From the NCBI RefSeq assembly GCF_022846255.1, contig NZ_AP025682.1: a DNA stretch of 64,000 nt. One strand, 5' to 3'. This stretch comes from Escherichia coli (lineage in GTDB: Bacteria; Pseudomonadota; Gammaproteobacteria; Enterobacterales; Enterobacteriaceae). A program made the translations under genes and the position numbers. The notes below the pieces were generated by a model. That model saw only the letters and a list, made by a program, of their open reading frames with translations, was not told the DNA's origin and searched no databases. Shown here piece by piece: positions 864-51,320 of this stretch; the stretch's first letter is position 1, and every line of letters starts with the position of its first letter.

Positions 864-2264
864 ATGCCACATTCCTACGATTACGATGCCATAGTAATAG
901 GTTCCGGCCCCGGCGGCGAAGGCGCTGCAATGGGCCTGGTTAAGCAAGGTGCGCGCGTCGCAGTTATCGAGCGTTATCAAAATGTTGGCGGCGGTTGCAC
1001 CCACTGGGGTACCATCCCGTCGAAAGCTCTCCGTCACGCCGTCAGCCGCATTATAGAATTTAATCAAAACCCACTATACAGCGACCATTCCCGACTGCTC
1101 CGCTCTTCTTTTGCCGATATCCTTAACCATGCCGATAACGTGATTAATCAACAAACACGTATGCGTCAGGGATTTTACGAACGTAATCATTGTGAAATAT
1201 TGCAGGGGAACGCCCGCTTTGTTGACGATCACACGCTGGCGCTGGACTGCCCGGACGGCACGGTAGAAACGCTAACTGCAGAAAAATTTGTTATTGCCTG
1301 CGGCTCTCGTCCATATCATCCAACAGATGTTGATTTCACCCATCCACGCATTTACGACAGCGACTCAATTCTTAGCATGCACCACGAACCGCGCCATGTA
1401 CTTATCTATGGTGCTGGAGTTATCGGCTGTGAATATGCGTCGATCTTCCGCGGTATGGATGTAAAAGTGGATCTGATCAACACCCGCGATCGGCTGTTGG
1501 CGTTTCTCGATCAAGAGATGTCAGATTCTCTCTCCTATCACTTCTGGAACAGTGGCGTAGTGATTCGTCACAACGAAGAGTACGAGAAGATCGAAGGCTG
1601 TGACGACGGTGTGATCATGCATCTGAAGTCAGGTAAAAAACTGAAAGCTGACTGTCTGCTCTATGCCAACGGCCGCACCGGTAATACCGATTCGCTGGCG
1701 TTACAGAACATTGGGCTGGAAACTGACAGTCGCGGACAGCTGAAGGTCAACAGCATGTATCAGACCGCACAGCCGCACGTTTACGCGGTGGGCGACGTGA
1801 TTGGTTATCCGAGCCTGGCGTCGGCGGCCTATGACCAGGGGCGCATTGCCGCGCAGGCGCTGGTGAAAGGTGAAGCCACCGCACATCTGATTGAAGATAT
1901 CCCTACCGGTATTTACACCATCCCGGAAATCAGCTCTGTGGGCAAAACCGAACAGCAGCTGACCGCGATGAAAGTGCCGTATGAAGTGGGCCGCGCCCAG
2001 TTCAAACATCTGGCACGCGCACAAATCGTTGGCATGAACGTGGGCACGCTGAAAATTTTGTTCCATCGGGAAACGAAAGAGATTCTGGGCATTCACTGCT
2101 TTGGCGAGCGCGCTGCCGAAATTATTCATATCGGTCAGGCGATTATGGAACAGAAAGGTGGCGGCAACACTATTGAGTACTTCGTCAACACCACCTTTAA
2201 CTACCCGACGATGGCGGAAGCCTATCGGGTAGCTGCGCTAAATGGCTTAAACCGCCTGTTTTAA
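864..2264 (+). CDS. sthA: Soluble pyridine nucleotide transhydrogenase (466 aa)
   Basis: ORF-track protein [24 protein letters not shown]... with FAD/NAD Rossmann motifs; length and synteny next to oxyR match E. coli SthA. Confidence 0.95.
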
Positions 2265-3415: not shown

Positions 3416-4699
3416 TTACTCAATCCGATCTTTGACAATAAAGAAGTAACACAGCGCCCCGGTGAACGTCACACAGGCCGCGATAACCAGCGCCAGATTA
3501 AACGAGTGTGTGGTATCCACGACCCAACCGGTTACGATCGGAGCAAAGGAAGCAAAAACAAAACTGCCAAAGTTTTGAATCCCGGCGATGGAAGCCACTT
3601 TTGTTTCTGACACCATCACCTGCACCAGCCCCCATGCAGATGTTCCCGCGAAATGCACGCAGAACAGCGCCATTGAGATAAACGCTACCGCCTGGGCTGG
3701 CGAGGAAGATTGCACGACCAGCAACGTGCCTAATGCCGACATCATCAAACCGCAGACAATCGCCGTTTTACGCGTCTTCGCCAGGTCATAGCCTTTTTTC
3801 GCCAGCCGATCGACAACAATACCGTTAACCCACATCCCGACCGCCGCCGCGAGGAAAGGAATTGCCGCCACCCAACCGGTTTTCGCCAGACTGAAACCTT
3901 GTTCGGCCTGCAAATAACCGGGTAACCACGCGATGTAGAGCCAACCGGTATAATTGACGCCAGAGAAACCTAAAATCATCCCCCAGGTTGTCCGATGCTT
4001 AAACAGCGCCAGCCACTCGCTAAATTGTAACTGTGGACGCGGTTTAACCGGCGCGGAGAGATATGTCCGTTCTTCCTCGGTCAGGACAAACTGCGCCCGG
4101 TTGCGATACCACGCGTACCAACAGATCCCAACCAGAATCCCTGCTACGCCGATGATGACAAACATCGTCCGCCAGCCCCATGCCAGTTGCATCAATACAA
4201 GAGCAGGAGGCGCGATAGCCTGACCGATAACGGTAGATGAGTTAAAAATCCCCAGCGCCGTGCCGCGTTCTTTTTGCGCATACCAGTCGGTGATCGACTT
4301 TACTCCCGCAGGCATAAATGGCGCTTCGCCAATACCCAGACCGATACGCATTAAAATAAAGTGGCTAAAAGAATTAACCATTCCTGTTAATGCCTGCATT
4401 AATGACCAGAATATTAAGCCTGCGCCTAACACTATTCGTGGGCCAAAGCGGTCTAGCAAAATACCGGAAGGAAGTTGTGAAAAACCATAAGACAGAGAAA
4501 ATGCAGAAAGCAAAACACCAAATTCGGTAGCGGATAATCCTAACTCACCACGAATTGCTTCACCTGCCACGCTCAATGACGAACGGTCGAGAAAATTAAC
4601 GATCCCCGCCATAAATAATAAAACCAGGGTCACTGTCTGAATACGACGAATCCGTTGCGGTTTATTACCCGCAACACTGGTTGACACATCAACGTCCAT
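3416..4699 (-). CDS. MFS transporter, anion:cation symporter (sugar-acid/hexuronate-type) family, 427 aa
   Basis: 12-TM-like hydrophobic profile, MFS signature region GxLLDRFGPR, resemblance to DgoT/ExuT/YjjL-type transporters; accessory relative to my memory of K-12 (oxyS directly followed by argH). Confidence 0.8.
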   Translation of the reverse strand: MDVDVSTSVAGNKPQRIRRIQTVTLVLLFMAGIVNFLDRSSLSVAGEAIRGELGLSATEFGVLLSAFSLSYGFSQLPSGILLDRFGPRIVLGAGLIFWSLMQALTGMVNSFSHFILMRIGLGIGEAPFMPAGVKSITDWYAQKERGTALGIFNSSTVIGQAIAPPALVLMQLAWGWRTMFVIIGVAGILVGICWYAWYRNRAQFVLTEEERTYLSAPVKPRPQLQFSEWLALFKHRTTWGMILGFSGVNYTGWLYIAWLPGYLQAEQGFSLAKTGWVAAIPFLAAAVGMWVNGIVVDRLAKKGYDLAKTRKTAIVCGLMMSALGTLLVVQSSSPAQAVAFISMALFCVHFAGTSAWGLVQVMVSETKVASIAGIQNFGSFVFASFAPIVTGWVVDTTHSFNLALVIAACVTFTGALCYFFIVKDRIE

Positions 4700-48396: not shown

Positions 48397-49356
48397 GTGG
48401 CACAACGAGATTATGTACGCCGCAGCCAACCGGCACCTTCGCGGCGAAAAAAGAGCACCTCACGGAAAAAGCAACGAAATCTGCCTGCGGTTTCTCCCGC
48501 TATGGTCGCTATTGCTGCCGCCGTTCTTGTGACCTTTATCGGTGGTCTGTACTTCATTACGCATCACAAGAAAGAAGAGTCCGAGACGCTGCAAAGCCAG
48601 AAAGTGACCGGAAACGGACTACCACCAAAACCAGAAGAACGCTGGCGCTACATCAAAGAGCTGGAAAGTCGCCAGCCGGGTGTGCGTGCGCCTACAGAAC
48701 CTTCTGCCGGTGGTGAAGTGAAAACGCCGGAGCAACTGACACCAGAACAACGCCAGCTTCTTGAGCAAATGCAGGCTGATATGCGCCAGCAGCCAACGCA
48801 GCTGGTTGAAGTTCCATGGAATGAACAGACGCCGGAACAGCGTCAGCAAACGCTACAGCGCCAGCGTCAGGCGCAGCAATTAGCGGAGCAGCAACGCCTG
48901 GCTCAGCAGTCGCGTACGACTGAACAAAGCTGGCAGCAGCAGACGCGTACGTCGCAAGCCGCGCCGGTACAGGCGCAACCGCGCCAGTCTAAACCGGCTT
49001 CTACTCAGCAGCCGTACCAGGATCTGCTGCAAACCCCTGCGCACACGACCGCGCAGTCGAAGCCGCAGCAAGCTGCGCCGGTTGCTCGTGCCGCTGACGC
49101 GCCAAAACCGACGGCGGAGAAAAAAGACGAACGCCACTGGATGGTGCAGTGCGGTTCGTTCAGAGGCGCGGAACAGGCAGAGACGGTACGTGCTCAGCTG
49201 GCGTTCGAAGGCTTTGACTCAAAAATTACCACCAACAATGGCTGGAATCGTGTGGTGATTGGCCCGGTGAAAGGCAAAGAGAACGCAGACAGCACCCTCA
49301 ATCGCTTGAAGATGGCGGGTCATACAAACTGCATTCGGCTCGCCGCCGGGGGTTGA
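48397..49356 (+). CDS. ftsN: Cell division protein FtsN (319 aa, GTG start)
   Basis: MAQRDYVRRSQPAPSRRKKSTSRKKQRNLPAVSPAMVAIAAAVLVTFIGG...; Q/P-rich linker and C-terminal SPOR domain. Confidence 0.94.
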   Translation: MAQRDYVRRSQPAPSRRKKSTSRKKQRNLPAVSPAMVAIAAAVLVTFIGGLYFITHHKKEESETLQSQKVTGNGLPPKPEERWRYIKELESRQPGVRAPTEPSAGGEVKTPEQLTPEQRQLLEQMQADMRQQPTQLVEVPWNEQTPEQRQQTLQRQRQAQQLAEQQRLAQQSRTTEQSWQQQTRTSQAAPVQAQPRQSKPASTQQPYQDLLQTPAHTTAQSKPQQAAPVARAADAPKPTAEKKDERHWMVQCGSFRGAEQAETVRAQLAFEGFDSKITTNNGWNRVVIGPVKGKENADSTLNRLKMAGHTNCIRLAAGG

Positions 49357-49380
49357 AACCCTCAAAATCCCCCCCATCTA
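49353..49380 (+). promoter_or_regulatory. Sigma-32 heat-shock promoter of hslVU
   Basis: TTGAAA (-35) ... CCCCCATCTA (-10) matching sigma32 consensus CTTGAAA/CCCCATNT, ~70 bp upstream of hslV. Confidence 0.75.
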
Positions 49381-49448
49381 TAATTGCATTATGCCCCGTA
49401 CTTTTGTACGGGGTTTGTACTCTGTATTCGTAACCAAGGGGTCAGCTC

Positions 49449-49979
49449 GTGACAACTATAGTAAGCGTACGCCGTAACGGCCATGTGGTCATCGCTGGTG
49501 ATGGTCAGGCCACGTTGGGCAATACCGTAATGAAAGGCAACGTGAAAAAGGTCCGCCGTCTGTACAACGACAAAGTCATCGCGGGCTTTGCGGGCGGTAC
49601 TGCGGATGCTTTTACGCTGTTCGAACTGTTTGAACGTAAACTGGAAATGCATCAGGGCCATCTGGTCAAAGCCGCCGTTGAGCTGGCGAAAGACTGGCGT
49701 ACCGATCGCATGCTGCGCAAACTTGAAGCACTGCTGGCAGTCGCGGATGAAACTGCATCGCTTATCATCACCGGTAACGGTGACGTGGTGCAGCCAGAAA
49801 ACGATCTTATTGCTATCGGCTCCGGCGGCCCTTACGCCCAGGCTGCGGCGCGCGCGCTGTTAGAAAACACTGAACTTAGCGCCCGTGAAATTGCTGAAAA
49901 GGCGTTGGATATTGCAGGCGACATTTGCATCTATACCAACCATTTCCACACCATCGAAGAATTAAGCTACAAAGCGTAA
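49449..49979 (+). CDS. hslV: ATP-dependent protease subunit HslV (176 aa)
   Basis: [38 protein letters not shown]... N-terminal Thr nucleophile. Confidence 0.97.
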
Positions 49980-49988
49980 GGATCTCCC

Positions 49989-51320
49989 ATGTCTGAAATG
50001 ACCCCACGCGAAATCGTCAGCGAACTGGATAAGCACATCATCGGCCAGGACAACGCCAAGCGTTCCGTGGCGATTGCTCTGCGTAACCGCTGGCGTCGCA
50101 TGCAGCTCAACGAAGAGCTGCGCCATGAAGTGACCCCGAAAAATATCCTGATGATCGGCCCGACCGGTGTCGGTAAAACTGAAATCGCCCGTCGTCTGGC
50201 TAAGCTGGCGAATGCGCCGTTCATCAAAGTTGAAGCGACCAAATTCACCGAAGTGGGCTATGTCGGTAAGGAAGTGGATTCTATTATTCGCGATCTGACC
50301 GATGCCGCCGTGAAAATGGTACGCGTCCAGGCTATCGAGAAAAACCGTTATCGCGCTGAAGAACTGGCAGAAGAACGTATTCTCGACGTGCTGATCCCAC
50401 CGGCTAAAAACAACTGGGGACAGACCGAACAGCAGCAGGAACCGTCCGCTGCTCGTCAGGCATTCCGCAAAAAACTGCGTGAAGGCCAGCTTGATGACAA
50501 AGAAATCGAGATCGATCTTGCCGCAGCACCGATGGGCGTTGAAATTATGGCTCCTCCGGGCATGGAAGAGATGACCAGCCAGCTGCAGTCCATGTTCCAG
50601 AACCTGGGCGGTCAGAAGCAAAAAGCGCGTAAGCTGAAAATCAAAGACGCCATGAAGCTGCTGATTGAAGAAGAAGCGGCGAAACTGGTGAACCCGGAAG
50701 AGCTGAAGCAAGATGCTATCGACGCTGTTGAGCAGCACGGGATCGTGTTTATCGACGAAATCGACAAAATCTGTAAGCGCGGCGAGTCTTCCGGTCCGGA
50801 TGTTTCTCGTGAAGGCGTTCAGCGTGACCTGCTGCCGCTGGTAGAAGGTTGCACTGTTTCCACCAAACACGGGATGGTCAAAACTGACCACATTCTGTTT
50901 ATCGCTTCTGGCGCGTTCCAGATTGCGAAACCGTCTGACCTGATCCCGGAACTGCAAGGTCGCCTGCCAATCCGCGTTGAGCTGCAGGCACTGACCACCA
51001 GCGACTTTGAGCGTATACTGACCGAGCCGAATGCCTCTATCACCGTGCAGTACAAAGCACTGATGGCAACTGAGGGCGTAAATATCGAGTTTACCGACTC
51101 CGGTATTAAGCGCATCGCGGAAGCGGCATGGCAGGTGAACGAATCTACCGAAAACATCGGTGCTCGTCGTTTACATACCGTTCTGGAGCGTTTAATGGAA
51201 GAGATTTCCTACGACGCCAGCGATTTAAGCGGTCAAACTATCACTATTGACGCAGATTATGTGAGCAAACATCTGGATGCGTTGGTGGCAGATGAAGATC
51301 TGAGCCGTTTTATCCTATAA
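49989..51320 (+). CDS. hslU: ATP-dependent protease ATPase subunit HslU (443 aa)
   Basis: [40 protein letters not shown]...; Walker A GPTGVGKT. Confidence 0.97.

Follow-up and report, generated by a model that had tools for sequence, protein, structure and literature searches.

The hslVU (clpQY) control region of Escherichia coli: a sigma-32 promoter and a leader hairpin that very probably protects the mRNA from decay

The ftsN-hslV junction and its promoter

The window, which is the whole 64-kb stretch of E. coli DNA analysed here, carries the genes priA, cytR, ftsN, hslV, hslU, menA, and rraA in this order. Between ftsN and the GTG start codon of hslV the sequence runs ...GCCGCCGGGGG-TTGAAA-CCCTCAAAATCCC-CCCCATCT-ATAATTGCATTAT-GCCCCGTAC-TTTT-GTACGGGGT-TTGTACTCTGTATTCGTAACC-AAGGGG-TCAGCTC-GTG, and the features that we recognise in it are collected in Table 1. 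Queries of 401 bp and 107 bp from this region match 5425/5426 complete E. coli genomes, with annotated ftsN and hslV beneath them, and K-12 MG1655 has the same promoter and leader sequence (100% identity), for which coordinates are obtained as 4171736 minus the window position.

Table 1. Features of the ftsN-hslVU region in window coordinates
Feature	Position	Strand	Source
ftsN CDS	48397-49356	+	ORF list; RefSeq annotation of matched identical E. coli DNA
Sigma-32 -35 element TTGAAA	49353-49358	+	read from the sequence
ftsN TGA stop, inside the -35 hexamer	49354-49356	+	
C run, seven Cs, spanning spacer end and -10 start	49369-49375	+	
Sigma-32 -10 element CCCCATCT (adjoining A extends it to 49380)	49372-49379	+	read from the sequence
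Published +1 (71 nt upstream of GTG)	49378	+	PMC2681174
Perfect TATAAT, overlapping 3' end of the sigma-32 -10	49379-49384	+	
Probable +1 zone	49386-49388	+	inferred from sigma-32 geometry
Antisense 3' end (Term-seq)	49389	-	Adams et al. 2021 supplementary file 1, sheet LB 2.0: MG1655 4122347(+), 1381 reads
Leader hairpin	49393-49414	+	
RF02401 ClpQY_promoter	49394-49451	+	Rfam scan
Shine-Dalgarno AAGGGG of hslV	49436-49441	+	sequence; invariant across species in alignment
hslV (clpQ) CDS, GTG start	49449-49979	+	ORF list; RefSeq annotation
hslU (clpY) CDS, second operon gene	49989-51320	+	ORF list; RefSeq annotation

The -35 hexamer, the spacer, whose 13 nt fall within the range of about 13-15 nt for such promoters, and the -10 element CCCCATCT together have the geometry of a near-consensus sigma-32 promoter, in agreement with what a first-pass annotation of this DNA had claimed. 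The pattern TTGAAA-N12-15-CCCCAT occurs once in the window against 0.03 occurrences expected, and it is present as a single copy per locus in 47 of 50 loci. Both boxes are almost invariant across the aligned enterobacterial leaders, the -10 element being kept in 39 of 41, and TTGAAA lies at the same place in the orthologous loci. The attribution to sigma-32 dates from the first description of the operon (reference 1 of PMC2681174), and Lien, Yu, Liou and Wu (2009) found that expression of clpQ::lacZ and the clpQY mRNA are RpoH-dependent and RpoS-independent, that both rise when cells are shifted from 30 to 42 C, and that expression and its heat induction are lost in rpoH mutants (PMC2681174). 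Moreover, a C-to-T change in the -10 element, from CCCCATCT to CCTCATCT, lowered expression 1.7-fold and abolished the induction (PMC2681174). These experiments establish both the identity of the promoter and its dependence on RpoH. The canonical sigma-32 promoters (dnaK P1, groES, lon, and ibpA) are alike in having a TTGAAA -35, a spacer of 13-14 nt and a CCCCATNT -10, and the hslVU promoter shares with them RpoH dependence and heat induction; unlike them, it has a -35 in which the preceding gene, ftsN, ends with its stop codon, and a -10 whose 3' end runs into a perfect TATAAT.

At sigma-32 promoters transcription begins some 6-9 nt past the -10 element, a geometry that would place the hslVU start in the zone given in Table 1 and would yield a leader of 61-63 nt. 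The published +1, 71 nt upstream of the GTG (PMC2681174), falls inside CCCCATCT itself and cannot be right for a promoter that uses this sequence as its -10 element. The supplements of the Cappable-seq, ROSE, Shigella dRNA-seq and Romero 2014 data sets contain neither hslV nor a match to these coordinates. A start downstream of the hairpin had been named in the first-pass annotation as an outcome that would speak against its proposal; this is not the case, since the published +1 and the one expected from promoter geometry are both upstream of 49393. The hairpin is therefore part of the transcript, preceded by 5-7 unpaired nucleotides if the start lies at 49386-49388 or by 15 if it lies at 49378.

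The TATAAT overlapping the sigma-32 -10 appears, from its sequence, to be a latent sigma-70/sigma-38 -10 box that is devoid of a matching -35. A sigma-70 start has been predicted about 55 nt upstream of hslV (PMC10044804). We rejected a sigma-70 promoter here: the promoter scan called none of this type at the hslV leader, the TATAAT has no -35, and mutation of the overlapping RpoS -10 left expression unaffected (PMC2681174). The seven-C run at the end of the spacer is the site of a 2-bp deletion in the heat-evolved strain BM28 (PMC10044804), and strain BM28 lysU (H22) matches at 98.1%.

The leader hairpin and its conservation

The hairpin, GCCCCGUAC-UUUU-GUACGGGGU in the RNA and GCCCCGTAC/TTTT/GTACGGGGT in the DNA, consists of eight Watson-Crick pairs plus a G.U pair at the foot of the stem, and starts 13 nt past the -10 element. 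A repeat search over 49300-49470 returned one inverted repeat, with 8-nt arms that are 100% complementary and a 4-nt loop, so that the perfect 8-bp stem reported in the first-pass annotation within ~15 bp of the promoter is indeed there, and the interval 49353-49420 that it had marked holds both promoter and hairpin. The predicted folding energy of the sense hairpin is -16.5 kcal/mol, compared with -4.7 +/- 2.0 in 200 shuffles (z = -5.97), none of which was as good. Its 3' end precedes the Shine-Dalgarno (SD) sequence by 21 nt, and both the SD and the start codon lie outside it. The hairpin pattern is unique in the window even with three mismatches tolerated, and a REP-like repeated or mobile element was rejected because it occurs there only once.

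An Rfam scan identified the leader as RF02401 (ClpQY_promoter, Cis-reg), with a match over the full model (1-57 of 57) that scores 63.6 bits, the gathering score being 42, with E = 1.2e-12. It is this element itself and not a relative of it, as it likewise lies directly in front of hslV and has the sequence of the K-12 locus used in the experiments. Despite its name, the model runs from the hairpin through the GTG of hslV, and the DNA promoter boxes are outside it. Of 12 further enterobacterial loci scored with this model, all 12 passed the threshold, with 58.7-76.4 bits. Other Rfam matches nearby (mir-1205 and anti-hemB) score well short of their cut-offs and were attributed to chance. Promoter and leader hairpin are thus already known, having been characterised by Lien et al. 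2009 (PMC2681174) and curated in Rfam. The discovery value is accordingly small, the stabilising role having been published in 2009, and the use of the present case is that reading of the sequence alone picked out a real, functional promoter-plus-leader element.

For the comparative analysis, one genome per species was scanned for the SD-to-GTG block AACCAAGGGGTCNGCTCGTG; because this anchor lies outside the hairpin, it imposes no selection on the hairpin columns. We obtained 49 loci in this way, including Escherichia, Citrobacter, Salmonella, Klebsiella, Raoultella, Kosakonia, Enterobacter, and Trabulsiella, from which 41 distinct leaders were aligned. The sample comes from this single scan, anchored on an exact block, and covers Enterobacteriaceae only, so Yersinia, Serratia, and Erwinia (PMC2681174 Fig. 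1B) are outside it. In the 41 leaders, 95.9% of the cells of the nine-pair stem form standard pairs, compared with 29-62% after a shift of the 3' partners by 1-3 columns. Compensatory changes are found at pair 33:42, which is C-G in 19 leaders, U-G in 16 and U-A in 3, and at pair 34:41, which is A-U in 32 and G-C in 8. Double-changed cells number 11, against 3.1 +/- 1.5 in shuffles, and 0 of 500 shuffles reach 11; on the same leaders, neither the count of pairs with a change on both sides nor that of further pair types exceeds the shuffles. All these data suggest that the covariation of the stem is real but modest, the support being held down by the five of nine pairs that never vary in this sample and by its restriction to Enterobacteriaceae.

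In two lineages, Citrobacter amalonaticus S646 (L027) and Intestinirhabdus alba (L025), we observed ERIC-type repeats inserted at the same point, directly after CCCCATCTATA. These insertions separate the promoter from the hairpin, which is kept in both lineages. The stem of the C. amalonaticus leader has an A.G mismatch, and its predicted minimum-energy fold pairs CCCC with the SD.

The hairpin and the level of hslVU mRNA

The effect of the leader has been studied experimentally with deletions and substitutions. Deletion of 40 bp of it (d40) lowered both beta-galactosidase activity and mRNA, and in constructs driven by the arabinose promoter the removal of the inverted repeat (dIR, with a leader of 35 nt) or of most of the leader (dL, with 15 nt) cut mRNA, ClpQ protein and ClpQ function, the dIR mRNA also decaying faster after rifampicin (PMC2681174). 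When the stem was disrupted by replacing its 3' arm with Ts (S-IR) the mRNA was lower, and it was restored when both arms were swapped for a different complementary sequence (R-IR; PMC2681174). The level of mRNA therefore depends on the structure, and the transcript that lacks it is less stable. The same study found no effect of Hfq on hslVU and no involvement of an sRNA, and its authors found neither an RNase E nor an RNase III motif (PMC2681174). These functional data come from one laboratory and mostly from plasmid constructs with the arabinose promoter (PMC2681174). The first-pass annotation had placed the hairpin in the 5' UTR of hslV as a possible modulator of mRNA stability, and had suggested reporter fusions with stem-disrupting mutations as a check. 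Such fusions and mutations were in fact already in the literature, in which disruption or deletion lowers the mRNA, and deletion, disruption and restoration together bear out the proposal for a leader whose sequence is identical in K-12 (PMC2681174).

The same annotation had mentioned, as one form that this modulation could take, an RNA thermometer-like element. According to this explanation the hairpin would melt on heat shock and raise the translation of hslV, and it could be favored because the operon is heat-induced, because some heat-shock mRNAs (rpoH, ibpA) carry thermosensors, and because a CCCC in the leader could in principle pair with the GGGG of the SD. However, the hairpin, with a predicted free energy of -18.3 kcal/mol at 30 C and -14.3 kcal/mol at 45 C, is predicted to be fully folded from 30 to 60 C, with a pair probability of 1.000 up to 50 C and still 0.944 at 90 C, and the predicted accessibility of the SD is flat (0.50-0.51 at 30, 37, 42, and 45 C), in keeping with a structure that ends short of the SD and includes neither it nor the start codon. 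ROSE, fourU and the sensor in the rpoH coding region are also structured elements of heat-shock mRNAs, but thermometers hide the SD or AUG in marginal helices, whereas this hairpin is far too stable, is SD-free, and has no predicted or reported temperature response. Furthermore, operon and protein fusions show the same heat response, rpoH or -10 mutants are no longer induced, and the 2009 authors reported no thermosensitive segment in the leader (PMC2681174). The thermometer suggestion did not stand up to these results, and we give it practically no chance of being correct.

An intrinsic terminator or attenuator, which would end ftsN transcripts or prematurely stop those of hslVU, is a highly improbable explanation as well. 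The hairpin does resemble Rho-independent terminators in its GC-rich perfect stem, its tetraloop and its position past a stop codon (37 nt past that of ftsN), and in E. coli, when the G.U pair is left uncounted, 5 of the first 8 nt of the 3' flank UUUGUACUCUGUAUU are U. It differs from them in lacking a conserved U-tract and a mapped sense 3' end: the UUUG tail after the hairpin is specific to the E. coli lineage in the alignment, the flank in most other genera being C-rich (GGGGC-CUG, GGGGC-CCC, GGGGC-GCU), and in the tables of Adams et al. 2021 neither ftsN nor hslV has an entry for a 3' end on the sense strand, be it in the three Term-seq conditions, the 5'-UTR table or the Rho table. Besides, the terminator scan did not call the hairpin, and its deletion lowers the downstream mRNA instead of raising it (PMC2681174). 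It could also be argued that the 3' arm serves mainly to keep its CCCC off the GGGG of the SD, with the effects on stability being secondary to ribosome loading. In fact, the S-IR mutant is confounded in this respect, as the CCCC that it sets free would, by prediction, pair with the SD (predicted unpaired probability 0.33 for the SD and 0.05 for the start codon), and the fold predicted for the mismatched C. amalonaticus stem is also in line with such a role. But the dIR construct, which is devoid of both arms and has no free CCCC, shows a predicted SD accessibility of 0.51, as in the wild type, and yet its mRNA and half-life fall. As the predicted SD accessibility is alike in wild type, dIR and R-IR (0.47-0.51), the dIR phenotype is not explained by masking of the SD; moreover, this proposal leaves the presence of the CCCC itself unaccounted for, and we consider it quite improbable. 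RNAalifold also proposed a long-range pairing of the CCCC of the -10 element with the SD GGGG, which we discounted: these Cs precede the site at which sigma-32 transcripts begin and would be present only in RNA reading through from ftsN.

Protection from decay and the antisense strand

The explanation that we favor, and that is very probably correct, is that this region is the heat-shock control region of hslVU (clpQY), made up of a sigma-32 promoter and a 9-bp leader hairpin that protects the mRNA from decay. In it TTGAAA-N13-CCCCATCT, overlapping the last bases of ftsN, is recognised by RNA polymerase carrying sigma-32 (RpoH), which would start a few nucleotides upstream of 49393, giving a leader of roughly 61-71 nt. 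The very stable hairpin would be the first structured element of this leader and would leave the ribosome-binding site unmasked; acting through its structure and not its sequence, it would protect the hslVU mRNA from decay and so raise the amounts of mRNA and of HslV protein, while heat induction would stem from the promoter and not from the RNA. The nuclease step would probably be a hindered 5'-end-dependent attack by RNase E, with the hairpin either limiting access to the 5' end or obstructing the scanning of the enzyme from that end toward cleavage sites farther downstream.

Classical 5'-terminal protection, as in ompA, reportedly needs a hairpin located 2-4 nt from the 5' end, and the predicted native single-stranded segment of hslVU (5-7 or 15 nt) would exceed this distance. 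Furthermore, the pBAD33 vector presumably adds about 38 nt of leader to the transcripts of the stabilisation constructs, so that the hairpin would be internal and not 5'-terminal where its effect was shown, unlike the situation in ompA. These constructs were cloned at the KpnI site of pBAD33 by the 2009 authors, who likewise compare the hslVU hairpin with the 5' stabilising stem-loops of ompA and papA (PMC2681174). Protective 5' stem-loops (Emory 1992, Arnold 1998) and the linear scanning of RNase E from the 5' end, a movement that obstacles hamper (Richards and Belasco 2019), are both covered in a review (PMC7509114). Obstruction of RNase E scanning accounts for an effect of an internal hairpin no less well than classical 5'-terminal protection does.

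The hairpin may also have a counterpart on the other strand, where a 3' end mapped by Term-seq (Table 1) sits 4 nt past the foot of the palindrome. It could be proposed that the hairpin also protects the 3' end, which it would form, of a transcript of the antisense strand running back through the hslV start, which may add antisense regulation, and the antisense hairpin is indeed predicted to fold at -15.0 kcal/mol (z = -5.5). Nevertheless, this end is found only in LB at OD 2.0, that is, in one condition of one dataset, and its read count is low relative to the neighbouring entries; the antisense flank AUAAUGCAAUU has no U-tract, and no antisense promoter-like site was found in 48900-49900. 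We therefore regard such a two-strand element as unlikely, the simplest reading being a trimming of pervasive antisense RNA as far as the stable stem.

Returning to the protective hairpin, a more specific version is conceivable, although we lean against it, in which it would act as an internal roadblock to RNase E scanning, whatever its distance from the 5' end within some range, while the palindrome may also set the antisense 3' end. The roadblock is suggested by the fact that the hairpin worked behind a vector leader, would be separated from the native +1 by 5 nt or more, and has been retained in the two lineages with ERIC insertions. If this were true, a single DNA element would act on both strands. 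Finally, loss-of-function and promoter mutations of hslVU have been selected at high temperature (PMC7750951, PMC10044804). As the level of HslVU matters for thermotolerance, the leader would be a plausible point at which this level is tuned, an incremental addition to what is known of the operon.

Transcription start and promoter of hslVU

The published hslVU +1 (PMC2681174) was placed 71 bp before the start codon, that is, at window position 49378. This position falls within the -10 element CCCCATCT and is geometrically inconsistent with it, and canonical promoter spacing predicts instead a leader of 61-63 nt starting at 49386-49388. The 5' end of the cloning primer F5 maps at 49375, compared with 49378 for the published +1. 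The hslV +1 was not found in several genome-wide TSS supplements.

At its 3' end, the sigma-32 -10 element is overlapped by a perfect TATAAT hexamer, for which no usable -35 was found at 17 bp. If this hexamer were used, transcription would start ∼1-3 nt ahead of the leader hairpin; a latent sigma-70 start ∼55 nt upstream of hslV has been predicted (PMC10044804). In the heat-evolved BM28 strains described in the same paper, the promoter's seven-C run has lost 2 bp, which shortens the -35/-10 spacing to a value absent among known sigma-32 promoters. The BM28 lysU genome (NZ_CP102379.1) matched our region with 98.1% identity, the lowest among the E. coli matches listed.

Features in and around the hslV leader
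Feature	Sequence	Position	Strand	Basis or remark
Run of seven Cs in hslVU promoter	window	49369-49375	+	sequence
Perfect TATAAT hexamer	window	49379-49384	+	overlaps 3' end of sigma-32 -10 element
Predicted CCCC/GGGG pairing	window	49372-49375 with 49438-49441		RNAalifold, alignment A2 columns 3-6 with 74-77
ERIC/IRU-type insert	L027, Citrobacter amalonaticus S646	4371-4492		bounds approximate
ERIC/IRU-type insert	L025, Intestinirhabdus alba	1171-1465		bounds approximate
L31-Gammaproteobacteria ribosomal protein leader RF03157	L024	4220-4272	-	Rfam, 60-62 bits over both loci
L31-Gammaproteobacteria ribosomal protein leader RF03157	L018	571-622	-	Rfam, 60-62 bits over both loci

Surroundings of the hairpin

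An antisense 3' end has been mapped by Term-seq at MG1655 4122347 (+), corresponding to window 49389 (- strand), with 1381 reads and only in LB at OD600 2.0 (Adams et al. 2021). The hairpin is palindromic, and this end lies 4 nt past it in the antisense reading (ACCCCGUACAAAAGUACGGGGC-AUAA). The same Term-seq listing contains no sense-strand 3' end at the hairpin, and we found no promoter-like site on the antisense strand in window 48900-49900.

Two of the orthologous hslV loci, L027 and L025, have an ERIC/IRU-type repeat inserted at one common site, directly after CCCCATCTATA, setting the hairpin apart from the sigma-32 promoter. The L027 insert contains GTGAATCCCCAGGAGC...GTGACTGGGGTG, in agreement with the cores of the ERIC1R and ERIC2 primers, and the L025 insert is composite and longer, with a hairpin of other sequence (GGCCACGC...GCGCGGCC) at the same position. 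The leaders of both loci would start with ERIC RNA, and their hairpins would lie 120-300 nt from the 5' end.

The L31 leader found in L024 and L018 is located a few kb upstream of hslV, and the window counterpart of its position is at ∼44 kb, near rpmE/priA. In the E. coli genome collection, 2 of the 5426 places matching the ftsN-hslV region were on plasmid-labelled records, one genome had two matching places and one had none; these cases possibly reflect mis-assigned replicons, or duplication and deletion of the region.

Predicted pairing of leader CCCC with the Shine-Dalgarno sequence

In S-IR, the published construct in which the 3' stem arm was changed to Ts (PMC2681174; mapped here on window 49393-49441), the CCCC of the 5' arm is freed and predicted to pair with the Shine-Dalgarno GGGG, and because of this the construct, described as structure-disrupting, may also block translation. 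The predicted unpaired probability of the Shine-Dalgarno sequence was 0.33 in S-IR, compared with 0.47-0.51 in the wild type, dIR and R-IR; that of the start codon was 0.05 in S-IR, compared with 0.31. The same alternative CCCC-Shine-Dalgarno pairing appears in the minimum-energy fold of L027, a natural variant whose stem contains an A.G mismatch.

Furthermore, RNAalifold on the aligned distinct leaders (alignment A2) paired the Shine-Dalgarno GGGG with the CCCC of the -10 box, and both are invariant in A2 except in L024 and L027, the two rows with a truncated or replaced left end. This predicted pairing could be possible only in read-through transcripts coming from ftsN and, if real, would mask the hslV ribosome-binding site in them.
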